From positions 35,043 through 99,042 of the forward strand of contig CAYZKY010000001.1 of assembly GCA_964478815.1 (NCBI GenBank): a stretch of 64,000 nucleotides of DNA, read 5' to 3'. This document shows, one piece after another, positions 10,308 through 26,237 of this stretch. Below the pieces are notes generated by a model. It did not search any database, was not told the DNA's origin, and was given only the letters and a program-made list of their open reading frames with translations. How positions within the stretch are numbered: position 1 is the first letter of the stretch; each line of letters starts with the position of its first letter. This DNA is from an uncultured Verrucomicrobiota bacterium. Lineage in GTDB: Bacteria; Verrucomicrobiota; Verrucomicrobiia; Limisphaerales; SXQI01. The position numbers and the translations under genes are program-made.

Positions 10308-11726
10308 ATGCTGGGTCTTTTCGGTGCGATCAACATGGGAACCCGGGCGCTGCAAAATCAGCAACTGGGGATCGAAGTGACCGGGCATAACCTGGCGAAC
10401 GTCAGCAATCCGGCGTACCGCCGTCAACGCCTGGAATTGACGACCGCGGATACGTTGCCGACCCCGCTGGGGCCGCAGGGTCTGGGGAGCCATGCGGTGG
10501 GCATCACGCAAATGCGGGATGCCTTGCTGGACGCGCGCATTCAGCAGGAGCTGAGCCTTTCCGGGTATCTCGAGGCGCAGCAACAGGCGCTGGAATATGC
10601 CCAATCGAACCTCGGGCAAGAGATCGACCGCACGGCTTCGGCCGCGGGCGCTTCCGGAACATCGTCCGGCCAGTTCGGGCTGGCGGAAGGACTCAGTTCG
10701 TTCTTCAACGCCTTCCAGAGTCTTTCCACCAATCCAACCTCGCCGGCCGAACGGCAGGTGCTGCTGCTGAAAGCCCAGGATCTGGTGGCGGACTTCAACC
10801 AGACCCACGCCCGGCTCGAGGTCATCGAAGCCTCGATGAACGACACCGTGCGGAGCGATCTGAACAAGGTGAATGAATTGCTCACCACGATCGCCCGCTT
10901 GAACGACGACATTCGGAATACCGAGAACTCCACCAACGGCGTCGCCAACGATCTGCGGGATACACGGCAGGCCACCGTCGAGGAGCTGTCGCGGCTGGTG
11001 GATCTCGAGGTCACCGAATCGGCCGAAGGGGCTTGCAACATCGCGATCGGCGGCGTCTCGGTCGTCGAGGACAAGCATGTGCTCGAAACGCTCGAGACCT
11101 ACGATCCCGGCGACGGCCGGCTGTTGGTCCGGGCGGCGAACGGCCCCGGCTTGACCTTGTCGGGCGGACGTCTGCAAGGAACGATCGAGGCGCGCGATGG
11201 CGCCCTGGCCAAGTTGCAAACCTCGATCGACACCCTGGCGGCGAACCTGATCTCCGAAGTCAACAGCCTGCACGCCGGCGGGTATGGGCTCGATGGCGCC
11301 ACGGGCCGCAATTTCTTCGCCGGCACGGACGCCGCCAGCATCGTGCTGGATGCCGCGTTGCAGGACAATCCGGCGGCGATTCAGGCGAGCGGCGTCCTCG
11401 GCGAAGTCGGCGACAACCAGGTAGCGCTCGGCCTGGCCCGGCTGGCGACGGCCCGGCAGGCCGCGCTGGAAAATCAGAGTTTCTCGGAATACTTCGGTTC
11501 GACCACCGCCTCCCTCGGCCAGACGCTCGCCTCGGCGAACGGGCAGGCCGCCACGCAGAAAGTCGTGGAATCGATGCTGCTGCGGCAGCGCGATTCGATC
11601 GTCGGCGTATCGCTGGACGAAGAAATGACCAACATGATGCAGTATCAGCGGGCGTTTCAGGCCTCGGCGAAATTCATCAATACCATCGACGAGCTTTTTG
11701 AAACGGTCCTCTCGCTGAAGCGGTAA
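10308..11726 (+). CDS. flgK: Flagellar hook-associated protein 1 FlgK
   Basis: 472 aa. N-terminal LQNQQLGIEVTGHNLANVSNPAYRRQR and C-terminal VSLDEEMTNMMQYQRAFQASAKFINTIDELFETVLSL. Confidence 0.85.
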   Translation: MLGLFGAINMGTRALQNQQLGIEVTGHNLANVSNPAYRRQRLELTTADTLPTPLGPQGLGSHAVGITQMRDALLDARIQQELSLSGYLEAQQQALEYAQSNLGQEIDRTASAAGASGTSSGQFGLAEGLSSFFNAFQSLSTNPTSPAERQVLLLKAQDLVADFNQTHARLEVIEASMNDTVRSDLNKVNELLTTIARLNDDIRNTENSTNGVANDLRDTRQATVEELSRLVDLEVTESAEGACNIAIGGVSVVEDKHVLETLETYDPGDGRLLVRAANGPGLTLSGGRLQGTIEARDGALAKLQTSIDTLAANLISEVNSLHAGGYGLDGATGRNFFAGTDAASIVLDAALQDNPAAIQASGVLGEVGDNQVALGLARLATARQAALENQSFSEYFGSTTASLGQTLASANGQAATQKVVESMLLRQRDSIVGVSLDEEMTNMMQYQRAFQASAKFINTIDELFETVLSLKR

Positions 11727-11746: not shown

Positions 11747-12682
11747 ATGCGCGTCACCTCCCACACCTTCCCCGACAGCCTGATCCAGCAACTGACGCGC
11801 CTGACCATTACGCAGAACCGCCTGCAAACGCAGGCCTCCACCGGCCAGCGCATCCAGCTTCCTTCGGACGATCCGGCCGCGGTGCGGCGCGTGCTCGATT
11901 TGCAGGCCCAGGGAGCTTCGACAAATCAGTACCAACGCAATATTTCGACGCTGGAGGAAATCACCCAGACCGGTTACACGGCCTTGCGGGCCCTGAAGAA
12001 CGTCTCCGACCGCGCCGGCGAAATCGTCATCCTGGCGGACGGCACCAAGTCTCCCGCCGAACTGTCCATCTTCGCGACGGAGATCGATTCGCTGATCGAG
12101 CAGGGAGTGGGGGCGGTGAACGCCAAGTTTCGCGAAGAATATATTTTCGGCGGAAACCGATCCGATCAACCGCCCTTCGAGATCGTCTACGACGCCGGAG
12201 GACGCATTACCGGCGTGAATTATCAGGGCAGTGCCAACACGAACGAGTATGAAATCGGGCCGGACGTTCTGATCGCACCTCACTCTGTCGGCTCGAACAA
12301 CAGCGGTTCCGGCGCGCGGGGACTCGTCACGGATTCTCGCTCCGGCGCGGATCTTTTCAACCACCTGATTGAGTTGCGCGACCACCTGGCGGCAGGCGAC
12401 ACGGCGGCGATTTCCGCGACGGACAAAGCGGCCTTCGCGGACGATGAGGACAACCTTCTCTTTCACATCGGGAACATCGGCGCCGTGCTCGACCGGTTGA
12501 ATGCGGCAGAGGCTTCGGTCCAACAGCGAGGCGAATCGATCGAGCAAAGTATTTCCACGGAAGTGGATGCGGACCTGGCTCAGACTCTGGTGCGGCTGAC
12601 CGAAACGCAAACGGCCTACCAGGCCGCCCTCCAAAGCGGCGCCCGGGTTCTCGGCCAAAGCCTGCTGGATTACCTCCGCTAG
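11747..12682 (+). CDS. flgL: Flagellar hook-associated protein 3 FlgL
   Basis: 311 aa with a flagellin-like N-terminus (MRVTSHTF...LQTQASTGQRIQLPSDDPAAV) and C-terminus (DADLAQTLVRLTETQTAYQAALQSGARVLGQSLLDYL). Confidence 0.8.
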   Translation: MRVTSHTFPDSLIQQLTRLTITQNRLQTQASTGQRIQLPSDDPAAVRRVLDLQAQGASTNQYQRNISTLEEITQTGYTALRALKNVSDRAGEIVILADGTKSPAELSIFATEIDSLIEQGVGAVNAKFREEYIFGGNRSDQPPFEIVYDAGGRITGVNYQGSANTNEYEIGPDVLIAPHSVGSNNSGSGARGLVTDSRSGADLFNHLIELRDHLAAGDTAAISATDKAAFADDEDNLLFHIGNIGAVLDRLNAAEASVQQRGESIEQSISTEVDADLAQTLVRLTETQTAYQAALQSGARVLGQSLLDYLR

Positions 12683-12926
12683 GAGGCCCTCCCCTTACCA
12701 ACTTCCGCAAGCAGATCACGGCGGCCGTCTCGCGCTGTCTTTCGGCATCTTCCGTTCGCTGACCTCCTTAGAACCTTGACGATTTCCCTGCGGGAACGTC
12801 CATGTCCCGGCAAGTCCTGCCTCGCTCTCGAGCCGTCCTATTGAAAGTGCTGCACGCACCGGATTTGGCCTGGCAACGCTCTCTTTAAGGGCGGCGGCGG
12901 CCCTGCGAAAATTGCCCAAAACGGGC

Positions 12927-12942
12927 TGGCACGCCCGTTGCT
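12927..12942 (+). promoter_or_regulatory. Candidate sigma-54 (-24/-12) promoter TGGCACgcccgTTGCT
   Basis: Perfect TGGCAC-N5-TTGC match at the end of the only long (260 nt) intergenic gap in the flagellar cluster. Two caveats apply. It abuts the annotated fliW ATG. It also forms the loop and 3' arm of a 7-bp inverted repeat (AACGGGC/GCCCGTT, 12920-12939). Confidence 0.4.
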
Positions 12943-13413
12943 ATGCCTTGGATCGAGCTTGTTAAAAGCCACATGAGAGTCACGGATAACCTCGTAGCCG
13001 AGCCCTTGGTCAGCCCCGCTGAGCAAGACGCTCAGGAGATTTGCCTGCCCCTGGGTCTGCTCGGGTTCGAGCAAAACACGCGCTATGGACTGTTCGGACG
13101 GGAAGGGGAGGAACCGTTCGTCTGGCTCCAGATGCTGGAAGAGCCCGGACTGTCATTCCTGCTCGTTCCTCCCTTTGATATCATGCCGACCTACCGGCCC
13201 GAACTGCGGCCGGAGGATGTCGGTTTTCTCGGACTGAGCTCACCCGCCGACGCGGTGGTGTGGGCGATCGCCACGGTGCGCGGATCGCGGCGGACAGCCA
13301 ATCTCAAGGGCCCCATCGTGATGAACCGCCGAACGCTCCGGGCCAAACAAATCATCCCGGTCAACGCCGCCAACTACCAAACCGACTACCCGCTCCTGGT
13401 CGCCTCCAACTAA
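12943..13413 (+). CDS. fliW: Flagellar assembly factor FliW (CsrA antagonist)
   Basis: 156 aa. ICLPLGLLGFEQNTRYGLF...FVWLQMLEEPGLSFLLVPPF...ANLKGPIVMNRRTLRAKQII fits the FliW family. Alternative start Met11 at 12973. Confidence 0.85.
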   Translation: MPWIELVKSHMRVTDNLVAEPLVSPAEQDAQEICLPLGLLGFEQNTRYGLFGREGEEPFVWLQMLEEPGLSFLLVPPFDIMPTYRPELRPEDVGFLGLSSPADAVVWAIATVRGSRRTANLKGPIVMNRRTLRAKQIIPVNAANYQTDYPLLVASN

Positions 13414-13421
13414 TTTCAGCC

Positions 13422-13694
13422 ATGCTCGTCCTCACCCGCAAACTCAACGAAAACATCCTGATCGGCGACGACATCGTCGTGAAGGTCCTGAAGATGGGAT
13501 TGGAAAGCATCCGTATCGGCATTCAAGCCCCGTCGGATGTGCCGGTCCATCGGCAGGAGATCTACGAAGAAATTCGCAACAGCAATCAGCAGGCCGTGAC
13601 GGAACACGGCCAGGCTCTCCCGAAAATCAAACAAAAAGCGCGCCGCACGCCGCGGCCGATCACGGAAGAGTCACACCAAAACCCGCAGATATAA
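13422..13694 (+). CDS. csrA: Carbon storage regulator CsrA (flagellar FliW-partnered type, long C-terminal tail)
   Basis: MLVLTRKLNENILIGDDIVVKVLKMGLESIRIGIQAPSDVPVHRQEIYEEI is canonical CsrA. Internal ATG at 13422 of the listed ORF 13260-13694. 90 aa including a roughly 35-aa basic tail. Confidence 0.9.
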   Translation: MLVLTRKLNENILIGDDIVVKVLKMGLESIRIGIQAPSDVPVHRQEIYEEIRNSNQQAVTEHGQALPKIKQKARRTPRPITEESHQNPQI

Positions 13695-13704
13695 CGTTAG
13701 GGAG
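13662..13704 (+). promoter_or_regulatory. Two GGA motifs (ACGGAA, TAGGGAG) in the flagellin leader; candidate CsrA binding sites
   Basis: The second GGA lies within the Shine-Dalgarno-like AGGGAG, 11 nt upstream of the flagellin ATG. The first lies about 37 nt upstream of it. This mirrors the two-site arrangement described for the B. subtilis hag leader. Confidence 0.35.
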
Positions 13705-13714
13705 TAGCTAGTCT

Positions 13715-14518
13715 ATGGTCATCAATACGAACACCCAGGCGCAAGCGGCCGCCTCCAACCTCTCCACCAGCCAAACGATGCTGAGCAAGTCGCTCTCGCG
13801 GCTCAGCTCGGGGCAAAAAATCGTCACGCCGGACGACGACGCCGCCGGCCTCGCCGTGGCCATGCGCCTCGACGCGCAGGTCAAGCGCCTCGACGCGGCG
13901 CGCAACAATGTCGGCAATGCCATTTCCTTTTCGCAGGTGCAGGATGGCTTTCTCATGCGGATCGGCAAAACGCTGGATCGGATGAGCGAGCTGGCCATCC
14001 TCGCGCAGGACGTCACCAAGTCGGACGCCGACCGCGCCCTGTATCAAGAGGAATACGCCCAGCTTTCCTCGTACATCGGCAATGCCGCCGACAAGGATTT
14101 CAACGGCGTGAGCCTGTTTTCCGCGTCCTCGCTCGATGTCACCATCGATTCCGAGGGCAGCACCTTCGCCATGTCCGGAGTCAACCTCGATCTGGCCGGT
14201 TATACGGACGCCCTCGGCGCCAGTATTTCGACCCGTTCCAACGCGATGGGCGCGCTGGAAGATGTGCGCACCGCCATTACTCAATTGGCGAGCGATCGCG
14301 CCCGCATCGGCGCCTACCAGGCCCGCCTCAACGCCACCTCGGCGCAGTTGTCGGTGACGCGCGAGAATCTTTCCTCCGCCAGTTCGCGCATTCAAGACGT
14401 GAACATCGCGGAGGAATCGACCCAGTACGCGCGCTATAACATTCTCGTGCAGTCCGGCACGGCCATGCTGGCGCAGGCCAATCAACTGCCGCAAAGCGTG
14501 CTTCGTCTCTTGCAGTAA
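13715..14518 (+). CDS. fliC: Flagellin (short, D0/D1-only type)
   Basis: 267 aa. MVINTNTQAQAAASNLSTSQTMLSKSLSRLSSGQKI...DDAAGLAV and the C-terminal YARYNILVQSGTAMLAQANQLPQSVLRLLQ are canonical flagellin termini. Confidence 0.9.
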   Translation: MVINTNTQAQAAASNLSTSQTMLSKSLSRLSSGQKIVTPDDDAAGLAVAMRLDAQVKRLDAARNNVGNAISFSQVQDGFLMRIGKTLDRMSELAILAQDVTKSDADRALYQEEYAQLSSYIGNAADKDFNGVSLFSASSLDVTIDSEGSTFAMSGVNLDLAGYTDALGASISTRSNAMGALEDVRTAITQLASDRARIGAYQARLNATSAQLSVTRENLSSASSRIQDVNIAEESTQYARYNILVQSGTAMLAQANQLPQSVLRLLQ

Positions 14519-14531
14519 TCGCCTCCTACCC

Positions 14532-14552
14532 GGCCGGCAATGGACGCCGGCC
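14532..14552 (+). other. GC-rich stem-loop (GGCCGGC-aatggac-GCCGGCC) between flagellin and the giant ORF
   Basis: A 7-bp perfect stem with a 7-nt loop and no following U-tract. It could be a partial terminator or mRNA-stabilising hairpin that uncouples flagellin abundance from the downstream gene. Confidence 0.3.
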
Positions 14553-14561
14553 TCCATCGGA

Positions 14562-17500
14562 ATGACTCCTCCCGCGAATTCTTCCGGCGCCTCGCTCCTC
14601 AGCGACGCGCCGGTTTCACGTCCGGTTCGGCATTTCATCATCTCCGGCACCACGCTCTGGAATCCCGGAGACGATTTTGTCCGGGGTGGCGTCATCCGCG
14701 CGCTGCGAAGCAGTTTTCCGGACGCCTCGCTCAACTTCCACTTCTACAACTTCGCCGAGGATCAATTTCCCAAATCGAAGTTTCGCGGGGTGGGAAACGA
14801 AGTCGGACCGTCCGACCTGGAGCGGATGAAAGGATTCGTCGATGGCATTATCGTCGCTGGTCTATCCGCGGGCCATGAGATCAAGGACCTGTACCGATGG
14901 ATTCTGGAGAGCGGACTTGAGGACCGCGTCTATCTCATCGGCGCGGGTTACGAAAATCCCTACTGCGCGGAGCACCTTGCGCAAGAGCCGGAAGCGGCCA
15001 TTTTCAGGAAGGCTCGGCTCCTTATTGGGCGCACGGAACGGCGGCCGGCCATGTTAGGGGAAGGGTATCGGCACTTGCCCTGCCCGGCCCTGCTGTCGGT
15101 GCCGGAAGTGAAGACCCTCCCGGCAAATCAACGCATCGAACGGACCGGTTTCTCCATTCAACTTCCACATGAAGCCGGGGTCACAAACCAGACGTGCGAC
15201 GCGGCATTCCACCAACTAGCCGTCGAGATTCTGCTTGAGCGAGCCAGGCTCGGGCCGGTGGAGGTGGTGGTTCATCATAAGAGCGAGTATTTCTATTTTG
15301 CGAAGCTCCTGGAGGGCACCGGGATTCCGGTCCGGTATTCGTCATTCGTCGAAGACTTGCACGACATCTACCGCGGCTTCGACCTGGTCGTAACCACTCG
15401 GCTCCACGCCAGTTTATATGCGAACGGTCATGGCATCCCGGGCATTATTATCAACCGCTCCGAACGGCACACGGCTGCGCTCGACCGGTTCGATCATTCT
15501 CGATGTGCCGCGGATCGCCCGAGTTTCGACGCTGAGTTTGCTCGCATCGAGAACCTGGGGTTGAGTCGGATTGCCAAGGAATTGGCAGCGTTCAAAGCCA
15601 ACCTGCTGGGGGAGTATGTGGGATTGATCCGGCCGGCGTTTGCGAAATGCCACCCGCAGCAAGACTCCTCCGCTTACGAATTCGATTCGGAAAAAAAGGA
15701 GCAACGGCTGGTGCGCGCGTTGGTGCGCCCTGGCATGACGGTCTTCGACGTCGGCGCGCATCACGGAAAGTACACCAAGCTGTTCGGCCTGCTGGCTGGG
15801 GATGCCGGACGCGTGTTTGCTTTCGAGCCGACTCCCGAATCGGCTGACCGATTACAATCAATGGTCGATCGCGAGGCCCTGGATAACACCACCCTGACTC
15901 GCGCGGTCGTGCATGAAACGGTTGGGACGGCCAACTTGCACCGGTTTCCCGAACGCTACTCCTCGTGGAATGGACTGGGTCAGCCGTCGATGGAGGATCC
16001 GGAGGATCCGAGCAAACTAGTGGCGCTGGTCGACAGCGTCGAAGTTCCCGCCGTCACGCTTGATGCCTTCTGCGCTGCCCGGCAGATCGATCGGATCGAC
16101 TATCTGAAGCTGGATGTTGAGGGCGCGGAGATCATCGCGTTGCGCGGCGCGGCCGGGCTGTTACGGCGGCAGGCCATCGGTCATTTGCAGTTTGAGGTCT
16201 CGCGCAAGATGCTGGAGGGGTTGGGCACAAAGGCCGGCGAAGTCTTCGCGTATCTGGCCAGCTTCGGCTACGAGTGCCATGCCATCCGCGAGGATGGTTC
16301 GATTGGGGAAGTCTGCGCAGATTCCGACTCGTTTTACGAGAACTACATCGCCTTGCCGGCGAAGAAACCGGCGGATTTGCCGGTTCATTTCTTCACGATC
16401 GTGCTGAACGGCCAGCCGTTTTTGCCCTGGCACATTGGGGTGCTCCGCCAACTGCCGTTCCGGTGGCATTGGCACATTGTGGAAGGAGTCGCCGAGCTGA
16501 ATCATGACACCGGCTGGTCGCGAAAAACTGGCGGACGGATTCCGGAGGCGCAGCACTCTGGCGGCCTAAGCATCGATGGCACGCGCGAGTATCTGGATCA
16601 GTTGCAACGCGCATTTCCCGGGCAAGTCACGATCTATCGCCCGCCGGGTGGGCGGTTCTGGGATGGCAAGCGGGAGATGGTGAACGCACCGCTGCCCCAC
16701 ATCACGGAGCAGGGGCTGCTCTGGCAGATCGACGCCGATGAGTTGTGGACGGTCTCGCAAATCGTGCGGGCACGGCAACTGTTCCTCGCGCATCCGGAGA
16801 AAACGGCGGCGTTCTTCTATTGCCACTTTTTCGTCGGCCCCGACCGCGTCATCACGAGCCGCGACACGTACGGCAACAATTCCGCGTACGAGTGGTTGCG
16901 CGTGTGGCGGTACCGTCCGGGCGATTCCTGGGCGGCGCACGAGCCCCCCCGGCTGATGCGGCCCGTGCCCGGAGGCCAGGCGATCGATGTCTGCGCTCTC
17001 GATCCGCTGCGGCAAGCCGAGACGGAGGCCTGTGGACTCGTATTCCAGCATTTCGCCTATGCCACGCCCGCCCAGGTGCAATTCAAGCAGGATTATTATG
17101 GGTACGCGGGCGCCGTGGAACGGTGGGAGCAACTGCAGCAAGTGACGCAATTCCCGGCGCGACTCGCGGATTATTTCCCCTGGGTGAAGGATGGAGCAAC
17201 AGTTGATCGGTGCGATCGATCCGGCGTAACCCCGCTTTTGCGTTTGGATAATACTTTACTCGGCGACGCTGCGAAATCGCTGGAAATCCCTGAACGAATC
17301 CTGTTCGTCCGAACCGACTCCATCGGGGATGCGGTCTTGGCCGCTTCCATGCTGGAGCCGCTGGCGCGGCAATTTCCGTCCGCGAAAATCGCGGTGCTAT
17401 GTCAGGAGCACGTCGCTCCGCTTTACGCGGCTTGTCCGTTGATCGCGAGCATCATTTGCTTCAAGCGGGCCGAGGTCGAAACTCCAGCCGGGCTCAAACA

Positions 17501-20500
17501 GATTCTGTCCGAGATCGCGCAGTTTCAGCCGGATGTGATTCTGAATTCGGTGCGTTCGCGCGACGCTCTGAGCGATGCGTTGAGCGTCGGATTCCGGGAC
17601 GCCACGCGCATCGCGATCGAGGGAGATTTGTGCAACATCACCCCGGCCGATCGCGCGCGCTACGATTCGGAATACACCCGACTGGTAACGATGCCCGGAA
17701 CGGCCAAAACGGAACTGGATAGTCATCGTGCCTTTCTGGAAGGGCTTGGCCTCGTGGCCGGAGAGCTGCAGCCCGTCGCGTGGACATCGCCCGACGACGA
17801 ACAGTTGGCCGATGCCTTCTTCGCGCAGGAGAAGCTGGATCCGCTGCGAACTCTGGCCTTGTTTCCCTTCGGCCAGCACGCGATTCGCGATTACGCAGGT
17901 TACGCGGAGGCGTTGCGCGGCTACGACGATTGGTCGATCCTTATCTTTGGAGGCGCTTCGTCGGAAGCCGCCTGCGGGGAACTTGGGGGCAAACTCCCCG
18001 GACGAGTCTTTAATCTGGCCGGCCGCACGACCGTCCCGGAAGCGGCGGCCCTGCTGCGGCGCTGCCGGGTCATGCTTGGCGCGGAAACCTCGGGCGCGCA
18101 TCTCGCATGCGCCGTCGGTGTGCCGAATGTCGTGCTGCTGGGAGGCGGTCATTTCGGGCGCTTCATGCCCTACAGTCCGCTGACCTCGGTGACCGTGCGC
18201 CCGCTCGAGTGTTTCGGCTGCAACTGGCAATGCCGCCACTCCCGCCCGCATTGCGTGCAGGATCTGCCGCCCCGCGTCCTGGCCGAAGCGTTGCGTCAAA
18301 CGCTGGCCACGCCATCGCCGCGCCCGCGCGTGTTCGTGGAGGCCGCCGGTCCCGAATCCGGCACGGATCGGCCGGGACGCACCGACGTCCGTGCGTATTT
18401 GACCAGCCCTGTCGAAGTGATCGAAGTGCCGGCCGATGCGTCGGAAGCGCCTCTGCCTGAAGCCGCCGCCGCATTGGTCGCCGAAGCCGAAGCGGCCCTG
18501 GTGCGCCAGGATCAGGCGAGTGCCCTGAAGTCGCTGCAAGCGGCCCGTGCCCTTGTGCCGCACCACACCGGTCTGGCGATGGCGATGGCGAACCTTCATG
18601 TGGAGGCCGGGCAATTGGGCGAGGCTCAATCGGTGCTTGAGGCGGCGACGGCGAGCGATCCGGCCAATGTTCTGCTGCATCTGTTCGTCGCGCAAATCTG
18701 CCGCGCCACCGAAGACGCGGAGGGACTCGAACGTTCGCTTTCCAAAGCCTTGCGTCTCGATCCGGCCCACCCGGATGCCCTGCGTTTGCTGGCGGAGCTC
18801 CATATCGCAGCCGGCCGATGGCAATCCGCCGGCGTTATCTACGGCAATCTGCTCAAGCGCGGCGTCGCGGATATCGAGATCATTCTTGCGCTCGGACGTT
18901 GCTTCCTCGAAACGGGACAATTGGAAGCAGCCGTGGCGTGTTGCCATGAAGCGCTCCGCCAGCATCCGAACCATCCGGGCGCCCGGGCCCAGCTTGCCCA
19001 GGTCGAAGCACGCGCCGGAAGTGCCGCCCCGCCGGCGGCGGCGAGCATTCTGCCGGAGCATGAGAAGGTCGGTTGCCGCATCTGCGGCTCGCAGAAGGGC
19101 GCTCCGGTGCGCACGCGGGCCGATATCGTGCAATGCACGGATTGCGGCACGGTCTATCTGCGCACCCGGCTGACGAAAGACGCGATGCGCCGGCTCTACC
19201 AAAGCTACGCCGACGGCGGCTCGCACATGGCCCTGCCGAAGGACGTTGCCGAAGCCGAGCGAAGCGGACTCGCGCGCGACTATTTCCTCAAAGAGATTTT
19301 GGAGTTCACGGAAGCCGGGGGCCGCTTCCTCGATGTGGGCTGCGGCTGGGGGGCGTTCCTCCTCAATGCCCGCAAAAAAGGGTTCGCTCCGCAAGGGATT
19401 GAGCTGACACGCAAATGCGTGCAATACGCCAACGAGCGCTTGCAGATCCCGGTCGTCGACACGCAATTGATCGAAACCGATCTTCCCAAAACCAGCCTGC
19501 GCGTGGTGACGATGAACCATGTTCTCGAGCATCTGCCGGAACCGCGCGCGGCCCTGGTGAAGGTGTGGGAGTCGCTCGAGGCCGGCGGAATGTTCTGTGG
19601 AATCGTGCCCAATTTCGCCTCAGCCTGTTCGACCACGCTGGGCGACCACTGGTACTGGCTCGATCCCCAGTATCACTACACTCATTTTACGCCGGCCACT
19701 CTGCGCAAGCTGCTGGAATCCGCCGGCTTCCAGGTGGAGCGGATTTACACGGCCACCGGCGATTACGGCGCGGAGAATGTCCAGAAGGCGTGTGCGACCG
19801 CGGACCCGAAACTCGCCGACACCCAGTATTTTCAACAGGAACTGAAACGGATCGAGCGGGAAGGGCGAGGCGAGGAGATTCGATTCTTCGCGCGCAAGCC
19901 CCCAGCCTCAACGCGGGCGAACCAGCCCTGGGTTTCGGTCATCGTCTCGGCCTATAACTCCGAACGCTTCCTGCGTCCGTGTCTCGAGAACCTGGCTCGG
20001 CAGACGATTTTCGAACAAACGGAAGTCATCGTCATCGACAGTGGCTCGGAACAGAACGAGCGGGCGATCGTCGAGGATTTCCAGAAGCGGTTCCCGAACA
20101 TTCGCTACATCCGGACCGAACGCGAGACGCTTTACGCCGCCTGGAATCGCGGGCTCGCTCTCGCCCGCGGACGGTACTGGGTGAATGCCAACGCCGACGA
20201 CGCGATGCGCGACGATGCGTTGCAAGTCCTGGCCGCCGGGCTCGAACGCCATCCCGACGCGCCACTCGCCTACGCGGACTGCGCCTGGACTTCCCGGCCG
20301 AACGATTGCTTCCCCTCTCAACATGTGCTGAAGGAAGTGCGCTATCCGGATTACGCCCCGGTGCAAACTCTCTTTTACTGCCTGACCGGATGCCTTCAGT
20401 TCTGGCGGACGGAGTCGCTCCGGGCCCTCGGCGGTTTCGATGCCTCGCTGCGCTACGCGGGGGATTACGAGATCACGACGCGCCTCGCCGAGCAGGGAGG

Positions 20501-23500
20501 CCACGCGCTCCATGTTCCGGACACGCTCTCGCTCTTTTACCAGAATCCGCAAGGGCTCACGCAGGGATCGACCGCTTCGCAGGCTGAGCATGCACACATC
20601 GAGGCGCGCGCGCGCGCGCGGCTATCGATCGAACGCCTGTTCCAGTGCCGGGCTGGCAGCAGCATGGGGTTGGCTCGCGCCTGGACCAGCCTGGGTCTGC
20701 ACGCGCTCGAAGTGCATGTGCCCTGGGAAAAGCAACCCATGCGGCAGGAAGCCTTCGCCTTCGAGTGCTTCCGCAAAGCCTTTCAGATCGAGCCCGAATG
20801 CCCGGAGGCCGCGCTCAACTATCTCATCGCCGCGACCAATACCGGCCAGGGTCACTTGGTGCGGGAACAGGAGAACTCCGACATCCCCACGGTGCGACAA
20901 GCCGTGGAAAAATGGCGCGCCAACGCGGCATTCGAGAAGCCCGCGGCCCTTCCGGCGGTGGTGGGCCCGAGGTTCGAATCCATCCAGGCCCATCCGGAAC
21001 TGCTGGCCGAGGAACCCGAAGCGATCCGCCCGTGGGTCGCGCGCCGTGAAGGTCGTTTTACCTATCTTTCCTCCCGCCTCATCCCGCCCCCGCAGTCCGG
21101 CGCCTATACGGAGAAGGAATTCCAGGCCATTAGCGCCGAACTGTTCCGGGCGATCAGCCAGTTTCCGAAGTTCCATGCGCATTTCGGCGGCATTGGTGAC
21201 GCGCTGGTCCTGCTCAGCACCTTTCTGGATCGGTCCCCCGGCGGCATCGTGCTCAGCTATCCGAATTCCATTCCGGCGGCGCGGTCGTTCTTCGATGCGT
21301 TTCCGGAAATCGGACAGGTCTATTTTCTGCCGCTCTCCGACAGTCCGCGGTTCCATGCCATCCTGCGCTGGATCATGCGCACGATTCCAAACTGCCTCGG
21401 CGCCGGTGCTACTCCAAAGGAAGGCTACGACGAGTGGAATGCCCGGCTCGACATCGAACGGGCTTACGGCGTGTGCAAATCGCCGCGCTGGCCGAAACGC
21501 TTCGGCTCGAACGAGGCTTCCCGCACCATCTGCCTCGCTCCCAAAGGCAGCCTGACCGGCATGGTCGGCTCGAAGAAGAATATTGTCGATCCGGCGATCT
21601 GGCCGGACCTGATCCGCATGATTCGCGACCGCGGCTTCGAGCCGGTGATCATCGGCACCCCGGACGAACGCGCCGAGTACCCCAGCCTCGACGGCTGTCT
21701 CGATCGGCGGAGCTACTCGTTCGCCGAACAGATGACGCACATCGCCCGGGCGGCGGCCCTCGTCGGCGCAGATTCTTGGGCCAAATCGTTCTCCGCCCTC
21801 GCGGGAATTCCGACCATTGTCTTCGAACCTTTGAAAGGTGCCGATTGGGCTGGGCTCAAAGATCCCTCGGATTTCGTCTTTATCGAGCCCTGGCCCAGCA
21901 TCCAGATGGTGAAGAACCTCGCGCAATGTACCGAGGCTCTGAATCGATGCGTGAAGGGTGCTCCGAAAGCCCCTCCAGCGGCGCGCGCCATCGTCGCATG
22001 GGAAGGCCCATTTGCCGGCTGCGGCAGTCTGGCGCATATCAATCGGCAGCTCGTCACCCGCCTCGAGAAGCACCGCGGCCTCTCGATCACCCGCGGTTCT
22101 CGCCCGGACGCGCAACTGACCGTCCGCCATGCCTGGCCCCCGAATTGGGCCAAACCGAAACAAGGGAAACTTGCGATCATCCAGCCTTGGGAATTCGGTT
22201 CCCTGCCGGCCGCGTGGGTCCAGCAGGCGAATCAAGTGGACGAGTTCTGGGTGCCCTCGAACTACGTTCGGCAGGTCTACCTGGATTCCGGCATCGATCC
22301 GGCCAAAGTGCATGTGGTGCCCAACGCGGTGGACCTGGAATTGTTCCACCCTGGCGTCAAACCGCGCCCGTTGCCCACGCGCAAATCGTTCAAGTTCCTC
22401 TTCGTCGGCGGCACCATTCCCCGCAAAGGCATTGACCTCTTGCTGCAGTGCTACTGCCGCACGTTCACGGCGGCTGACGACGTGGTGTTGGTCATTAAGG
22501 ATTTTGGCGGGAAGAGTATCTACGCGGGCAAAACGCTCGGGGACGAAATCCAAAGGCTTTGTTCCCACCCGAACGCTCCGGAGATCGTTTATCTCGATGA
22601 GGAACTTCCCGCCGAAAGTTTGCCGGGATTATATACGGCCTGCGATTGCCTGGTGCATCCGTATCGCGGCGAGGGCTTCGGCCTCCCGGTCCTGGAAGCC
22701 ATGGCCTGCGGCCGGCCCGTGATCGTGACGGCCGGCGGCGCGACGGATGATTTCGTGCCCGAATGCGCCTCGCTCAAGATTCCCTCGACTCGCCGCTCCC
22801 TCGGCCGATCCGTCGATGGCATTCCCACGGCCGGCGAAGCCTGGCTGCTGGAGCCGGATCCCGCCGAGTTGTCGAAACACCTCGCATGGGCCGTCTCGCA
22901 CCGCCCGGAGCTGGCCGCCAAAGGCCAGGCCGCCCGCCCACAGGCCTCGAAATACTCCTGGGAGCGCATGGCAGAACACGTCGCCACGCGTCTTGCCGCC
23001 GCCGTAGCCGCCCCTACCAATCGTCGCTCGCCGCTGGCCAACGCTGAAGCTGCGCTGGAGGCCAAGGACCTGCCCACCGCCTGGCAGCTCGCATCGGTGT
23101 CGCTCGAACGGCATCCGTTCAACCCCAGCGCTCTCCTCCTGCTGGCCAAAATCGCTCTGGCCGCCGGGGATCTGGTCAGGGCTCGTCTCTGCGCGGAACG
23201 CGCCGGGCAATTGGCCCCGTCCTGGAAAGCTCCCCGGAAATTCGCCAAGGCCCTCCCTCGCAAAGCCGAAGTGCGTGTCCATCTGCCGCCGCTGCCGCCG
23301 CTCCCCGATCCAGCCAAGCCGCGCCTGTCTGTTTGCCTGATCGTGAAAAACGAAGAGGCGTTTCTCGGGCGCTGCCTCGCTTCCGTTCGAGAAGTGGCCC
23401 ACGAGATCATCGTGGTCGATACCGGCTCCACCGATCGCACCGTGCCAATCGCCCGCGAACAGGGCGCGCAGGTTCATCAGATCGCCTGGCAGGACAATTT

Positions 23501-24929
23501 CAGCGCGGCGCGCAATGCCGCTCTTTCCCATGCGACCGGGGATTGGATACTCTCCATTGATGCGGACGAGGAGCTGCGTCCGGAAACCCGCGAAGCGCTC
23601 TCGAAGCACCTGCGCGATACAGCCGCGATCGCGTTCCGCCTGCCGATTATCGATGCCGGCCAGGAAAACCACGGCTGCAGCTATGTCCCGCGGCTGTTCC
23701 GCAACGCCCCCGGCGTCGCCTTCACCGGCTGCATCCACGAGCAAGCCTTCAGCAGCCTGGAGGAACAACGCCAGGAGTGGGGCCTCGAATTCAAGCTGGG
23801 AGCCGCTGCCTTGTTGCATCACGGTTACGCCGATTCGGTGCAAGCCTCCCGCGGCAAGATCAAGCGCAACCTCGCGTTGCTCCGCCGGGCGGCGGCAGAG
23901 TCGCCCGGGGACGCCAATCTCCTGATGAACCTCGGGTTGGAACTCGTGCGCAGCGGTGACTTGCAAGCCGGCCTCGGCCAGTACCGCGCGGCGTACGAAA
24001 CCCTGGCCCGGCGGCCGCTGGGCGGAATTCCGGCCGAACTCCGCGAGACGTTCCTGACGCAGTATGCCACCTACTCGCTCCGCGCGGCCAACTATCCGGC
24101 GATCCTCGGTCTATTCTCGACGCCGCTGGCCAAGTCGGCTCCGTTAACCGCCTCGATGCATTACCTGGCCGGGCTCGCCGGCTTCGAGACCAAGCAGTTT
24201 GCGGTGGCGGCCGGACACTTTCGCGAGACCATCTCGAAACGGAACCGCCCGGCCCTCTCGCCGATCCTGCCGCAGGTGCTCACCGCCGCCCCGGAGCATT
24301 GCCTCGCGGCCTGCCAGCACAAGCTCGGCCAAACCGGGGAAGCGGCCCGCGCCTTCCAGCAGGCCATCGCGCGCGATCCGAACAACAGCGCGCTTCACCA
24401 GGATTACGCCTGCTTCCTGCGCGACGTGGGCGAGCCCGTCGAAGCGATCAAAGTGTTGCACCAACGGATCGCCAAGGACCCGGCCGAGCAAGACTCCTGG
24501 ACGCTGGGAGCGCAAATCGCTTTGGCCCATCCGTCCATGCACGAATTCGCCGTCGAATGGACCGGAGAAGCCCTCCGCTGTCTGCCGGGGCATCCTGCGC
24601 TTTCCCTGTTCCGGGCCGAGGCGCTCCTGCTGGGACAACAGCCGGCCGAAGCCGCACGGGTGCTCGCGGATGGCTCAGTGCCTGCCTCGCCCGCCTTATC
24701 GGCCCGGCGGATCGCCTGCCAATTGCTCGCGGATGAGCCGCGGCTCGTGCTCGGCGCCGCGAACTCGGCCGAAACCAGCCAGGAGTTTTTGAAGTTCTAC
24801 CGCGTGCTGGTGCAACGAGGGGCCGCCGCGCAAATCGATGCCATTAACCAGCGTCTCGACAATCTCGCCTTGGTTCTGCCCGCCGCAGCGCAACGGCTGC
24901 AATCCGTCCTGGTCGAAGCGGCGGCTTGA
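14562..24929 (+). CDS. Giant (3455 aa) multi-domain glycosyltransferase/methyltransferase/pyruvyltransferase/TPR fusion protein; candidate flagellin glycan assembly enzyme
   Basis: One uninterrupted frame with recognisable modules in series (approximate aa positions).
- 25-305: pyruvyltransferase-like (TTRLHASLYANGHGIPGIII).
- 380-595: FkbM methyltransferase (VFDVGAHHGKYT, IDYLKLDVEGAE).
- 610-860: GT-A-like (QIDADE).
- 910-1245: GT9-like (ILFVRTDSIGDAVL, GAETSGAHLACAVGVPNVVL).
- 1300-1480: TPR.
- 1500-1775: CxxC...CxxC ribbon plus class I SAM methyltransferase (FLDVGCGWGAF, NHVLEHLPEP).
- 1790-2000: GT2 (VSVIVSAYNSERFL, NADDAM).
- 2205-2465: second GT9-like module.
- 2470-2810: GT4 (GEGFGLPVLEAMACGRPVI).
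- 2820-2890: TPR.
- 2920-3095: GT2 (LSVCLIVKNEEAFL, SIDADEEL).
- 3100-3455: TPR. Confidence 0.85.
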   Translation: MTPPANSSGASLLSDAPVSRPVRHFIISGTTLWNPGDDFVRGGVIRALRSSFPDASLNFHFYNFAEDQFPKSKFRGVGNEVGPSDLERMKGFVDGIIVAGLSAGHEIKDLYRWILESGLEDRVYLIGAGYENPYCAEHLAQEPEAAIFRKARLLIGRTERRPAMLGEGYRHLPCPALLSVPEVKTLPANQRIERTGFSIQLPHEAGVTNQTCDAAFHQLAVEILLERARLGPVEVVVHHKSEYFYFAKLLEGTGIPVRYSSFVEDLHDIYRGFDLVVTTRLHASLYANGHGIPGIIINRSERHTAALDRFDHSRCAADRPSFDAEFARIENLGLSRIAKELAAFKANLLGEYVGLIRPAFAKCHPQQDSSAYEFDSEKKEQRLVRALVRPGMTVFDVGAHHGKYTKLFGLLAGDAGRVFAFEPTPESADRLQSMVDREALDNTTLTRAVVHETVGTANLHRFPERYSSWNGLGQPSMEDPEDPSKLVALVDSVEVPAVTLDAFCAARQIDRIDYLKLDVEGAEIIALRGAAGLLRRQAIGHLQFEVSRKMLEGLGTKAGEVFAYLASFGYECHAIREDGSIGEVCADSDSFYENYIALPAKKPADLPVHFFTIVLNGQPFLPWHIGVLRQLPFRWHWHIVEGVAELNHDTGWSRKTGGRIPEAQHSGGLSIDGTREYLDQLQRAFPGQVTIYRPPGGRFWDGKREMVNAPLPHITEQGLLWQIDADELWTVSQIVRARQLFLAHPEKTAAFFYCHFFVGPDRVITSRDTYGNNSAYEWLRVWRYRPGDSWAAHEPPRLMRPVPGGQAIDVCALDPLRQAETEACGLVFQHFAYATPAQVQFKQDYYGYAGAVERWEQLQQVTQFPARLADYFPWVKDGATVDRCDRSGVTPLLRLDNTLLGDAAKSLEIPERILFVRTDSIGDAVLAASMLEPLARQFPSAKIAVLCQEHVAPLYAACPLIASIICFKRAEVETPAGLKQILSEIAQFQPDVILNSVRSRDALSDALSVGFRDATRIAIEGDLCNITPADRARYDSEYTRLVTMPGTAKTELDSHRAFLEGLGLVAGELQPVAWTSPDDEQLADAFFAQEKLDPLRTLALFPFGQHAIRDYAGYAEALRGYDDWSILIFGGASSEAACGELGGKLPGRVFNLAGRTTVPEAAALLRRCRVMLGAETSGAHLACAVGVPNVVLLGGGHFGRFMPYSPLTSVTVRPLECFGCNWQCRHSRPHCVQDLPPRVLAEALRQTLATPSPRPRVFVEAAGPESGTDRPGRTDVRAYLTSPVEVIEVPADASEAPLPEAAAALVAEAEAALVRQDQASALKSLQAARALVPHHTGLAMAMANLHVEAGQLGEAQSVLEAATASDPANVLLHLFVAQICRATEDAEGLERSLSKALRLDPAHPDALRLLAELHIAAGRWQSAGVIYGNLLKRGVADIEIILALGRCFLETGQLEAAVACCHEALRQHPNHPGARAQLAQVEARAGSAAPPAAASILPEHEKVGCRICGSQKGAPVRTRADIVQCTDCGTVYLRTRLTKDAMRRLYQSYADGGSHMALPKDVAEAERSGLARDYFLKEILEFTEAGGRFLDVGCGWGAFLLNARKKGFAPQGIELTRKCVQYANERLQIPVVDTQLIETDLPKTSLRVVTMNHVLEHLPEPRAALVKVWESLEAGGMFCGIVPNFASACSTTLGDHWYWLDPQYHYTHFTPATLRKLLESAGFQVERIYTATGDYGAENVQKACATADPKLADTQYFQQELKRIEREGRGEEIRFFARKPPASTRANQPWVSVIVSAYNSERFLRPCLENLARQTIFEQTEVIVIDSGSEQNERAIVEDFQKRFPNIRYIRTERETLYAAWNRGLALARGRYWVNANADDAMRDDALQVLAAGLERHPDAPLAYADCAWTSRPNDCFPSQHVLKEVRYPDYAPVQTLFYCLTGCLQFWRTESLRALGGFDASLRYAGDYEITTRLAEQGGHALHVPDTLSLFYQNPQGLTQGSTASQAEHAHIEARARARLSIERLFQCRAGSSMGLARAWTSLGLHALEVHVPWEKQPMRQEAFAFECFRKAFQIEPECPEAALNYLIAATNTGQGHLVREQENSDIPTVRQAVEKWRANAAFEKPAALPAVVGPRFESIQAHPELLAEEPEAIRPWVARREGRFTYLSSRLIPPPQSGAYTEKEFQAISAELFRAISQFPKFHAHFGGIGDALVLLSTFLDRSPGGIVLSYPNSIPAARSFFDAFPEIGQVYFLPLSDSPRFHAILRWIMRTIPNCLGAGATPKEGYDEWNARLDIERAYGVCKSPRWPKRFGSNEASRTICLAPKGSLTGMVGSKKNIVDPAIWPDLIRMIRDRGFEPVIIGTPDERAEYPSLDGCLDRRSYSFAEQMTHIARAAALVGADSWAKSFSALAGIPTIVFEPLKGADWAGLKDPSDFVFIEPWPSIQMVKNLAQCTEALNRCVKGAPKAPPAARAIVAWEGPFAGCGSLAHINRQLVTRLEKHRGLSITRGSRPDAQLTVRHAWPPNWAKPKQGKLAIIQPWEFGSLPAAWVQQANQVDEFWVPSNYVRQVYLDSGIDPAKVHVVPNAVDLELFHPGVKPRPLPTRKSFKFLFVGGTIPRKGIDLLLQCYCRTFTAADDVVLVIKDFGGKSIYAGKTLGDEIQRLCSHPNAPEIVYLDEELPAESLPGLYTACDCLVHPYRGEGFGLPVLEAMACGRPVIVTAGGATDDFVPECASLKIPSTRRSLGRSVDGIPTAGEAWLLEPDPAELSKHLAWAVSHRPELAAKGQAARPQASKYSWERMAEHVATRLAAAVAAPTNRRSPLANAEAALEAKDLPTAWQLASVSLERHPFNPSALLLLAKIALAAGDLVRARLCAERAGQLAPSWKAPRKFAKALPRKAEVRVHLPPLPPLPDPAKPRLSVCLIVKNEEAFLGRCLASVREVAHEIIVVDTGSTDRTVPIAREQGAQVHQIAWQDNFSAARNAALSHATGDWILSIDADEELRPETREALSKHLRDTAAIAFRLPIIDAGQENHGCSYVPRLFRNAPGVAFTGCIHEQAFSSLEEQRQEWGLEFKLGAAALLHHGYADSVQASRGKIKRNLALLRRAAAESPGDANLLMNLGLELVRSGDLQAGLGQYRAAYETLARRPLGGIPAELRETFLTQYATYSLRAANYPAILGLFSTPLAKSAPLTASMHYLAGLAGFETKQFAVAAGHFRETISKRNRPALSPILPQVLTAAPEHCLAACQHKLGQTGEAARAFQQAIARDPNNSALHQDYACFLRDVGEPVEAIKVLHQRIAKDPAEQDSWTLGAQIALAHPSMHEFAVEWTGEALRCLPGHPALSLFRAEALLLGQQPAEAARVLADGSVPASPALSARRIACQLLADEPRLVLGAANSAETSQEFLKFYRVLVQRGAAAQIDAINQRLDNLALVLPAAAQRLQSVLVEAAA

Positions 24930-25018
24930 GCATCAGGGCCGGAGCGCGCAGCCGGTCAATTTTAAATCAGGCGCGCAAACTTGTGGATGCCGCCTGAACT
25001 TTTGCTACGTTGGGCGCG

Positions 25019-25735
25019 ATGAACATCGATCTGGTCCTGCAGGGCCTGCTCGTTTATGCCTGCTTTATTCCGGTGCTGACCTTCCATGAGTTCGCTCATG
25101 CGTGGACGGCCTGGAAGTGCGGCGATTCCACCGCGAAGTCGTTGGGGCGAGTCTCTCTCAATCCCATCCGGCACATGGAGCTTTTCGGGACGGTCGTGCT
25201 GCCGCTCCTCGCCATTTCGCTCCAAATGCTGGCCTCGCCGCTCGCCGGCTTCATCATCGGATGGGGCAAGCCGGTGCCGGTCAATCCCGACAATCTCCGG
25301 CGTCCCAGATTCGACGACACGCTGGTGGCGTTAGCGGGTCCCGCGTCCAACATCCTGCTCGCCATCCTGCTCATGGGCCTGGCCAAAGTCGGGATGCTGA
25401 CCCAATCCGCCGCCTTGATCGATGCCGCGCTGCTCTTCGTGCGCATCAATCTCATTCTCGCCTTCTTCAATCTGATTCCGATCCCGCCCCTCGATGGGTC
25501 GCACGTCATCAAAAACCTGGTGAACATGAGCTTGGAAACCTATTGGCGGCTGGCGCAATTCGGAATCTTTGCCGTGATTCTTTTCCTCAATGTGCCCGGA
25601 GTCCGCACCACTCTGGCCCGCGTCACCTACAGGGCCGAAGTGTGGATCGGGCGGATGTACGGGATCGGCGACGAATCCCCCTCCAAGCGTTATCACCGTG
25701 AACCGCGCCCCCGGCGCCTTAACAATGCCGTTTGA
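25019..25735 (+). CDS. Site-2 protease family (peptidase M50) membrane metalloprotease
   Basis: HEFAHAW (HExxH) in the first TM region and NLIPIPPLDGSHV (NxxPxxxLDG) later. Multi-pass membrane profile. ATG at 25019, with a possible TTG at 25010. Confidence 0.8.
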   Translation: MNIDLVLQGLLVYACFIPVLTFHEFAHAWTAWKCGDSTAKSLGRVSLNPIRHMELFGTVVLPLLAISLQMLASPLAGFIIGWGKPVPVNPDNLRRPRFDDTLVALAGPASNILLAILLMGLAKVGMLTQSAALIDAALLFVRINLILAFFNLIPIPPLDGSHVIKNLVNMSLETYWRLAQFGIFAVILFLNVPGVRTTLARVTYRAEVWIGRMYGIGDESPSKRYHREPRPRRLNNAV

Positions 25736-26192
25736 ATTCAAAACCGTCCGCCGCGTCGAGTTCTCCGAAACCGACATGGCGGGGATCGTCCATTACGCGA
25801 ATTTTTTCCGTTACATGGAGACGGCCGAGCATGGCTTTTACCGCTCGCTGGGGTTTTCCGTCATTCTCGACCAGTTCGATCCGCCGCTCGGCTTCCCCCG
25901 CGTTCATGCCGAGTGCGATTACCGGGAGCCGCTCCGGTTCGAGGATCAGGTCGAAATCCACCTGCTGGTCAAAGAGAAGCGCTCCCGCGTGCTCAGCTAC
26001 CAGTTCCGTTTCAACAAGCTCCCCGAACCCGGCGGCACCCCCAAGCTCGTCGCTGTCGGAGCCTTGACAGTGGTCTGCGTCACTCACGTCCCGAACGGCC
26101 GCATGGGAGCCGTCCCGATCCCGGAAGCCTTGGCCAGCCAGATCGAAGTCGCGCCCGCTGCTTCGCTGGCGCTTCCCGACGCAAAGTCCTGA
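25725..26192 (+). CDS. Acyl-CoA thioesterase, 4HBT/YbgC-like hotdog fold
   Basis: MPFEFKTVRRVEFSETDMAGIVHYANFFRYMETAEHGFYRSLG is the typical YbgC/4HBT N-terminus with the catalytic Asp. Internal ATG at 25725 of the listed ORF. Confidence 0.8.
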   Translation: MPFEFKTVRRVEFSETDMAGIVHYANFFRYMETAEHGFYRSLGFSVILDQFDPPLGFPRVHAECDYREPLRFEDQVEIHLLVKEKRSRVLSYQFRFNKLPEPGGTPKLVAVGALTVVCVTHVPNGRMGAVPIPEALASQIEVAPAASLALPDAKS

Positions 26193-26237
26193 TCGTCCGG
26201 CACCGCTGCCATTCACCAGCCAACGCCGGCGGCTGGC

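Follow-up and report, generated by a model that had tools for sequence, protein, structure and literature searches.

What does a gene encoding a polypeptide of 3455 amino acids (aa) do immediately behind a flagellin gene? The question is raised by a 64,000-nucleotide stretch of DNA (hereafter the window) from an uncultured Verrucomicrobiota bacterium (assembly GCA_964478815.1, contig CAYZKY010000001.1, positions 35,043 to 99,042). In the window an unbroken open reading frame (ORF) of 10,368 nt, including the stop codon, begins with an ATG after a gap of 43 nt from the end of the flagellin gene, fliC, at position 14518. Both the frame and the gap had been described in an earlier reading of the letters alone, made without database searches (the sequence-only reading), and both are upheld by the sequence and by the Pfam assignment of the flagellin. 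The analysis reported here suggests that the product is probably a soluble multi-enzyme that acts in the cytoplasm, where flagellin subunits awaiting export would receive an O-glycan, methylated and possibly also pyruvylated, directly on their Ser/Thr-rich loop.

The composition of the protein was determined by Pfam and NCBIfam scans of the whole sequence and of ten segments, using curated cut-offs; the two segments that have no Pfam assignment (aa 601-900 and aa 2031-2470) were modelled with AlphaFold and the models compared with the Protein Data Bank (PDB) using Foldseek. On these profile and fold assignments the protein is predicted to comprise about seven glycosyltransferase (GT)-type modules, namely a pyruvyl-transferase-like module, a novel GT-A, a GT9, a GT2, a GT9-like module, a GT4 and a GmaR-type GT2, together with two predicted S-adenosylmethionine (SAM)-dependent methyltransferases and three predicted tetratricopeptide repeat (TPR) blocks (Table 1). 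The DxD, EX7E and SAM motif I signatures are readable in the translation, the last of these as VFDVGAHHG in the FkbM-type methyltransferase and FLDVGCGWG in the class I methyltransferase, and the EX7E motif of Module 8 as GEGFGLPVLE. Module 1 matches PF04230 with 30-35 bits (cut-off 25.3) over profile positions 146-279 of 280 alone, which is the C-terminal half of the family; it is 45-66% identical to homologues from many phyla, and a search of the PDB with its profile gave a weak match to Pvg1p (5ax7, E 0.9) and nothing significant. Module 4 is assigned to GT9 by a match of 41-45 bits to PF01075 (cut-off 22). Module 5, which scores 79-81 bits against PF13489 (Methyltransf_23) and is 70% identical to its counterpart in the database protein P0069, carries its CxxC...CxxC motif N-terminal to the methyltransferase (from approximately aa 1503), where a match to Prok-RING_1 is weak and below the cut-off.

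The two modules that escape Pfam were assigned from their folds. In an alignment of 14 homologues of Module 3 the mean column identity is 67% and the IDADE motif, which provides the DxD, is invariant. The model of aa 601-900 has a predicted local distance difference test score (pLDDT) of 87.6, and its leading PDB matches are all GT-A enzymes (SunS, TarS, ArnC and SpsA; E down to 9e-6, template modelling score 0.34-0.46); sequence searches of the PDB with this segment, and likewise with aa 2001-2470, returned nothing significant. The model of aa 2031-2470 is based on a shallow alignment because the homology search gave four proteins only, and its first 119 residues are unreliable, but from aa ~2150 to 2465 it shows a confident double-Rossmann (GT-B) fold whose closest PDB counterparts are the GT9 heptosyltransferases WaaC (2h1h) and 3tov. 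Comparison of Module 7 with the GT9 profile of Module 4 using hhalign gave a probability of 85% and an E-value of 6e-6. The order of modules proposed in the sequence-only reading is therefore recovered in full, since all 12 of its items agree with Pfam or with the fold, including the GT-A and the second GT9-like module that lie beyond Pfam. Its further proposal, that a pairing of TPR and GT is repeated three times, is loosely true, but only the C-terminal GT2 and TPR pair matches the architecture of a characterised flagellin glycosyltransferase.

The maximum Kyte-Doolittle score in a 19-residue window is 1.55, indicating that there is no membrane segment, and in view of this lack of a hydrophobic stretch the protein is taken to be cytoplasmic. 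Scans of the whole protein and of the ten segments gave no Pfam match to MAF_flag10/DUF115 at E<=0.1, which rules out a Maf-type enzyme. Carrier (PP-binding), condensation and thioesterase domains, as found in nonribosomal peptide and polyketide synthases, were likewise absent from the Pfam and NCBIfam scans.

The most direct connection with flagellin is provided by the C-terminal cassette. The best PDB match of Module 9 is the glycosyltransferase domain of Listeria GmaR (22ao_A, E 5e-31 over 194 residues, phmmer), followed by the peptide S-glycosyltransferases SunS (7msp, E 1e-17) and ThuS. The homology corresponds to GmaR residues 1 to ~180, including the DxD motif, and a TPR helical domain follows directly on its C-terminal side. 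The DTGSTD and IDADEE motifs of Module 9 align with GmaR and are invariant in 10 relatives, and the pairing of a GmaR-like GT with a TPR tail recurs in 52 of 149 related database proteins. Judged from this similarity, the GmaR-like GT2 with its TPR domain is the best candidate for the part of the protein that recognises the substrate and adds the first sugar.

The gene context points in the same direction. The genes upstream of the ORF on the same strand encode an SRP54-type GTPase (flhF-like), a sigma factor (fliA-like) and the products of motA, motB, flgF, flgG, flgA, flgH, flgI, flgK, flgL, fliW, csrA and fliC, so that the ORF constitutes the final gene of a late flagellar cluster; downstream lie genes for an M50 peptidase and a thioesterase, and unrelated genes. 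For a housekeeping gene, pheA, the closest named counterparts come from metagenome-assembled genomes assigned to Verrucomicrobiota/Pedosphaera, with 74-78% identity. To look for the same arrangement elsewhere, the flagellar proteins of the window were used as phmmer queries against all ORFs of 36 genome loci that had been found with the N-terminal module. Genes for flgK, flgL, fliW or fliC were located within 10 kb upstream on the same strand in 13 of these 36 loci, and in 11 of the 29 that have at least 5 kb of upstream sequence. The linked loci include most of the evaluable Verrucomicrobiota as well as representatives of Calditrichia (L019), Pirellulales (L020) and Ca. Brocadia (L039). When metagenomes were searched with the GmaR-like module, two of the five closest loci had enough upstream sequence, and both (L046, L049) are flagellar-linked. 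Altogether a GT gene is found beside late flagellar genes in L001, L002, L004, L009, L011-13, L015, L018-20, L024, L027-29, L039, L046 and L049. By our own estimate, which was not computed, the chance that a random locus is linked to these few genes is well under 1%. The flagellin-directed role suggested in the sequence-only reading is thus better grounded, through the GmaR homology of the last GT2 and the linkage to flgKL, fliW and fliC in several phyla. The neighbourhood comparison that it had proposed reveals both fused and split forms at the flagellar site, and linkage of the orthologues to flagellar genes recurs.

The flagellin itself is short, consisting of D0 and D1 only with a Ser/Thr-rich central loop, as judged by alignment with flagellins of the related loci. 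Flagellins encoded at the linked loci are without exception short, at 267-272 aa, and share this central loop rich in Ser/Thr, with S/T positions that are conserved. Listeria flagellin is short too (~270-290 aa).

Under the proposed mechanism, the GmaR-like GT2 and TPR cassette would recognise flagellin and attach the first sugar to Ser or Thr residues of the central loop. The other GT modules would then lengthen the chain sugar by sugar, using nucleotide sugars provided from elsewhere in the genome, while tailoring of the glycan would fall to the two methyltransferases (FkbM-type and class I) and to the pyruvyl-transferase-like module, and the glycosylated subunit would finally be exported through the flagellar type III system. 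We infer the acceptor (flagellin), the initiating module, the donors and the composition of the glycan. The lack of a membrane segment in the protein, together with the finding that none of the neighbouring ORFs examined encodes a flippase, oligosaccharyltransferase or polymerase, fits direct glycosylation of a protein in the cytoplasm. The protein could in principle be a true glycan assembly line, with a fixed N-to-C layout in which the TPR-held flagellin loop is passed between active sites and the order of modules predicts the glycan, but we regard this stricter form as improbable, and processive, collinear action of this kind is speculative. If it is true, several mostly uncultured phyla would possess a protein-templated oligosaccharide synthase that works on a secreted substrate.

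Several observations weigh against glycosylation of flagellin, and some of them favour a different product. No flagellar gene lies within 10 kb in 23 of the 36 genome relatives of the N-terminal module, and these non-flagellar relatives of the N-terminal cassette include members of the Ignavibacteria and Phycisphaerae; as approximately two thirds of the relatives lack a flagellar neighbour, the family as a whole may not be flagellin-specific. The GT9 and PS_pyruv_trans families are typical of lipopolysaccharide (LPS) and polysaccharide pathways. The larger ORFs scanned in the 64-kb window include no nucleotide-sugar biosynthesis genes that might supply donor sugars, in agreement with the sequence-only reading, which had found no genes of the pse/leg/neu type adjacent to the ORF. 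Among the modules, the GmaR-like domain alone has a close characterised orthologue, and there the homology is confined to the catalytic domain: when aa 2916-3455 were compared with the PDB at E<=0.01, GmaR was matched by a 204-aa GT-domain chain alone, and the TPR tail had no detectable similarity at the sequence level.

The protein might therefore make or tailor another glycoconjugate, such as a surface polysaccharide, an LPS-like core, a free oligosaccharide or another glycoprotein, its proximity to flagellin being due to co-regulation or chance. The family memberships and unlinked relatives described above speak for this interpretation, and some relatives occupy corresponding surroundings: those in L005 and L006 lie in a sugar cluster with DegT, WbqC and formyltransferase genes, L005 having a nucleotide-sugar cluster beside a 2717-aa multi-GT gene and no flagellar neighbour, while L003 is near a faint Wzi-like gene. 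It is countered by the absence of membrane segments from the protein, by the lack of a Wzx, Wzy or ABC exporter, a ligase or an initiating phosphoglycosyltransferase among the adjacent ORFs examined, by the homology of the C-terminal module to a flagellin GT, by flagellar linkage across phyla that is far above the expectation for a random locus, and by the linkage seen at most evaluable loci of the window's own phylum. We consider another glycoconjugate to be the leading alternative, albeit a fairly unlikely one.

A second alternative is that the C-terminal GT2 and TPR cassette is a GmaR-like regulator or checkpoint, which senses the level of flagellin or controls flagellar genes, besides or instead of acting as a catalyst. 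GmaR is bifunctional (PMC9638930), and the gene adjoins the fliW-csrA-fliC partner-switch module. Yet neither the TPR domain of GmaR nor its linker and anti-repressor (MogR-binding) part has a sequence match at E<=0.01, a MogR-like gene was not seen, and the catalytic motifs of Module 9 are conserved, so that a regulatory role appears very unlikely.

The interpretation as a flagellin-modifying enzyme presupposes that the frame is genuine. Coding periodicity, in which G+C content is greatest at the third codon position, intermediate at the first and lowest at the second (GC3 > GC1 > GC2), is seen in 13 of 13 segments of the ORF and is uniform over the module junctions. The locus designated L001, assembled from a separate read set (Logan SRR13608703), contains a 3455-aa orthologue that is 97% identical over a gap-free alignment and is flanked by the same genes on either side. 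The ratio of nonsynonymous to synonymous substitution rates (dN/dS, Nei-Gojobori) between the window and L001 is 0.12 overall, as determined from the diverged 5' half only, and ranges from 0.03 to 0.17 per module over aa 1-1780. Residues 1781-3455 are nearly identical in the two assemblies and hence provide no substitution signal, so in the 3' half the frame is backed only by the independent assembly and by many long relatives. The 3455-aa ORF is a real gene under purifying selection. The periodicity and dN/dS reject a high-GC shadow ORF, and these, with the L001 orthologue, substantiate the same statement in the sequence-only reading. Divergence from L001 is mosaic, with 100% identity in an 8-kb block from ~20000 to 28000, flanks at 92-98%, and a peak of divergence at 15000-16500 (85-92% identity, with a synonymous rate, dS, of 0.54 over the FkbM module), which suggests inter-strain recombination or a strain-mixed assembly. 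That the long frame is an artefact, formed from adjacent genes merged by frameshift, sequencing error or a chimeric assembly, might be argued from the metagenome-type source, from this mosaic with its identical block and from relatives in which the same modules are split over two to three genes, but it is extremely unlikely given the indel-free 3455-aa frame in another read set, unbroken ORFs of 2,700-3,700 aa with the same module order in at least nine other genomes, lengths of >3,000 aa for 30 of the 149 cluster representatives that match best in the database, and the uniform periodicity.

The size of the protein is not exceptional. An exhaustive HMMER search with aa 1781-2915 identified 149 cluster representatives besides the query; 85 of these reach 2000 aa or more, 30 reach 3000 aa and 11 are no shorter than 3455 aa, the longest having 5089 aa. 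In P0104 (3539 aa) and P0106 (3418 aa) most of the series recurs with its order unchanged. Relative to the order PyrT < GT-A < GT9 < MT < GT2 < linker < GT9-like < GT4 < GmaR-GT < TPR (PyrT, pyruvyl-transferase-like module; MT, methyltransferase), only 16 of 982 module pairs (1.6%) are out of place, and this conservation may be explained by shared ancestry. A search with aa 1-900 gave 81 proteins of 500-1564 aa from metagenome-assembled genomes (MAGs) of Verrucomicrobiota, Ignavibacteria, Acidobacteriota, Planctomycetota and Desulfobacterota, which have the same modules at 45-70% identity, in some cases with the FkbM module relocated and in some with extra Methyltransf_24, radical-SAM or CheR-type modules. 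Lengths of the largest ORFs in the genome loci, measured from stop to stop in ORFs with the same module series, are given in Table 1. Split forms occupy corresponding positions: in L002 three genes, of 1551, 894 and 1056 aa and carrying the same modules, come after the series flgF...flgL-fliW-csrA, and in L004 fliW-csrA-fliC is followed by a gene for a 204-aa methyltransferase and then by a 1550-aa gene. The window gene is thus an ordinary member of a large and widespread family of giant genes; the singular size implied by the sequence-only reading has to be given up in the face of many proteins of 2,500-5,089 aa that have the modules of the window protein in unchanged order.

Known systems offer precedents for parts of this arrangement. 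In Listeria monocytogenes, GmaR transfers N-acetylglucosamine (GlcNAc) to flagellin, has a TPR domain after the GT and serves as an anti-repressor of MogR (PMC9638930; PDB 22ao). GmaR and the window cassette both have an N-terminal GT2 followed by a TPR helical domain, and the catalytic domain of GmaR is homologous to aa 2916-3110 (DTGSTD, DADE), but GmaR is a stand-alone protein of 637 aa that adds one GlcNAc, whereas the cassette is the C-terminal sixth of 3455 aa. The type B locus of C. difficile, in which GT1, GT2 (a GT and methyltransferase fusion) and GT3 are encoded downstream of fliC and act sequentially on flagellin (PMC5207246), may be regarded by analogy as the closest functional precedent. 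As described, its genes also lie right after fliC, GlcNAc and then more sugars are added to flagellin, the products are methylated sugars and one GT carries a fused SAM methyltransferase; it differs in having separate genes of ordinary size with a single fusion of this type, and lacks GT9, GT4, pyruvyl-transferase-like and TPR modules. Flagellin glycosylation islands of Enterobacteriaceae and Geobacillus place GTs beside flagellin together with FkbM-type and AdoMet methyltransferases, and many of their GT41 glycosyltransferases contain methyltransferase domains (PMC4875605, PMC5109656), but these islands consist of many separate genes, including those for nucleotide-sugar synthesis, and no fusion of similar size or module number has been described in them. 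The assertion in the sequence-only reading that known flagellin glycosyltransferases are stand-alone enzymes is consequently too strong, in view of the GT-methyltransferase fusions of the enterobacterial islands (PMC4875605) and of C. difficile GT2 (PMC5207246).

Cytoplasmic O-glycosylation of flagellin before export is established for Caulobacter FlmG and for Maf-type enzymes (PMC7591256; 10.1101/2023.12.03.569772). FlmG, by description, likewise pairs a flagellin-binding TPR part with a GT part; FlmG and Maf differ in transferring nonulosonic acids (pseudaminic or legionaminic acid, Pse/Leg), one sugar per site, and no pse, leg or neu genes were found among the window ORFs scanned. SunS and ThuS (PDB 7msp, 7msk) combine a GT2 with a helical C-terminal domain and glycosylate peptides directly, SunS ranking second to GmaR among the sequence matches of Module 9 and first among the fold matches of Module 3, but they modify Cys residues of small bacteriocin peptides and are not flagellar.

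Each of the enzyme families is already known, as are flagellin glycosylation loci as such. A full-text literature search, which was not exhaustive and leaves absence unproven, found no description of giant or multidomain glycosyltransferase fusions at flagellar loci. As far as this search shows, the fusion of a multi-step pathway into one protein of 3,000-5,000 aa within a flagellar operon is new, as is a large family of such fusions with a conserved module order.

Flagellin glycosylation is known chiefly from pathogens, where it involves several enzymes of ordinary size and usually one to a few sugars. The locus and its family suggest that Verrucomicrobiota, Planctomycetota, Calditrichia and other little-studied phyla have found another solution, in which a whole multi-step glycan pathway would be welded into a single cytoplasmic protein of 3,000-5,000 residues within the flagellar operon. 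If this is true, such proteins would represent a compact and portable tool for glyco-engineering, with one gene placing a defined methylated oligosaccharide on a protein, and a natural series of fused and split forms in which to study the organisation of multi-GT enzymes. They would add two glycosyltransferase modules that currently have no Pfam family, and complex flagellin glycans would be common among environmental bacteria.

Table 1. Features of the window and sizes of related ORFs. Positions refer to the window for its own features and to the named locus for relatives (L numbers).
Feature	Position	Strand	Basis or remark
flgK	10308-11726	+	Hook-filament junction gene; Pfam FlgK_D1/Flg_bbr_C
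flgL	11747-12682	+	Hook-filament junction gene; Pfam Flagellin_N/C
fliW	12943..13413	+	Pfam FliW, E 1.5e-29
csrA, 90 aa	13422..13694	+	Read from sequence; orthologous 90-aa gene in L001 with Pfam CsrA
Flagellin (fliC), 267 aa	13715..14518	+	Pfam Flagellin_N + Flagellin_C; presumed acceptor
Whole 3455-aa ORF	14562..24929	+	Sequence, L001 orthologue, dN/dS
Module 1, polysaccharide pyruvyl-transferase-like (aa 20-362)	14619..15647	+	Pfam PS_pyruv_trans aa 169-300; core N-terminal module of the family
Module 2, FkbM-type SAM methyltransferase (aa 370-600)	15669..16361	+	Pfam Methyltransf_21 (PF05050) aa 396-571, 79-85 bits; TIGR01444
Module 3, divergent GT-A, no Pfam family (aa 601-897)	16362..17252	+	AlphaFold, Foldseek, IDADE motif
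Module 4, GT9 heptosyltransferase-type GT-B (aa 905-1265)	17274..18356	+	Pfam Glyco_transf_9 aa 1063-1217; TIGR02195/02201
TPR block 1 (aa 1291-1495)	18432..19046	+	Pfam TPR_19/14/16, aa 1299-1486
Module 5, zinc-ribbon-like CxxC...CxxC + class I SAM methyltransferase (aa 1498-1782)	19053..19907	+	Pfam Methyltransf_23 aa 1576-1726
Module 6, GT2 (GT-A) (aa 1783-2030)	19908..20651	+	Pfam Glycos_transf_2 aa 1792-1989, 91 bits
Helical linker of uncertain fold (aa 2031-2150)	20652..21011	+	AlphaFold pLDDT <50
Module 7, second divergent GT9-like GT-B (aa 2151-2470)	21012..21971	+	Foldseek, hhalign; no Pfam match
Module 8, GT4 (GT-B) (aa 2471-2815)	21972..23006	+	Pfam Glycos_transf_1 aa 2542-2806, 63 bits; Glyco_transf_4
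TPR block 2 (aa 2821-2890)	23022..23231	+	Pfam TPR_16 aa 2826-2881
Module 9, GmaR/SunS-type GT2 (aa 2916-3110)	23307..23891	+	Pfam Glycos_transf_2 aa 2923-3031; PDB matches; TIGR04195 1e-22
TPR block 3, C-terminal TPR-rich domain (aa 3111-3455)	23892..24926	+	Pfam TPR_19/17/2, aa 3246-3333
Relative L012, 3003 aa			Same module series
Relative L029, 3046 aa			Same module series
Relative L017, 3210 aa			Same module series
Relative L023, 3676 aa	9980-21007		Same module series
Relative L019, at least 3696 aa	9941-21028		Reaches to a few bases from the end of the fetched locus
Relative L041, 2984 aa			Same module series
Relative L020, 2813 aa			Same module series
Relative L039, 2736 + 955 aa			Ca. 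Brocadia sapporoensis

Co-transcription of the 3455-aa ORF with fliW-csrA-fliC is probable. A scan of 12600-15000 gave no sigma-70-like promoter, and there is no terminator-like site between fliC and the ORF. A hairpin in this gap does not exceed shuffled sequence in stability (z -0.2), and on the last two grounds an attenuator is not proposed. The fliW, csrA and fliC genes are closely packed (12943-13720), and the leader of fliC contains AGGGAG 8 nt before its ATG, a candidate CsrA site, on motif and position, that would overlap the ribosome-binding site as in FliW-CsrA-flagellin partner-switch systems.

Further observations concern the relatives. Stand-alone GmaR-like GT2 genes of ~520 aa lie directly beside fliC in unrelated metagenome contigs (L051, L057, L059, L097, L116 and L121), and such genes beside flagellin are often preceded by a GT2-containing gene of 1000-1477 aa. 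Still larger multi-glycosyltransferase proteins include P0092 (5089 aa), P0206 (4751 aa), P0174 (4385 aa) and the products of L005 14169-22319, L019 9941-21028 and L023 9980-21007, and some of these very large relatives contain long TPR arrays or GT4 modules in tandem runs of four or five. A Verrucomicrobiae MAG (L014, 5296-15045) carries the GT-A/GT9 cassette twice, once on each strand, with an FkbM module that is broken over overlapping frames, suggesting a pseudogene or an assembly error. In L009, L012, L029 and L031, loci labelled Bryobacter, Bifidobacteriaceae or Pseudomonadales, the flagellins and GT modules resemble those of the window almost as closely as their Verrucomicrobiota counterparts do, and the labels of these loci may be binning errors.

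Elsewhere in the window, a 1019-aa ORF on the reverse strand (26238-29297) has no Pfam match; its N-terminus resembles a signal peptide, and ~550 of its residues form charged Ala/Glu/Lys/Arg repeats of the KAEAEAKRLAEEKRLAEE type, in a region of strong AT skew (-0.34). A gene on the forward strand (58799-60154) carries Radical_SAM and DUF3463 domains, an architecture that we take to be typical of the hopanoid side-chain enzyme HpnH.

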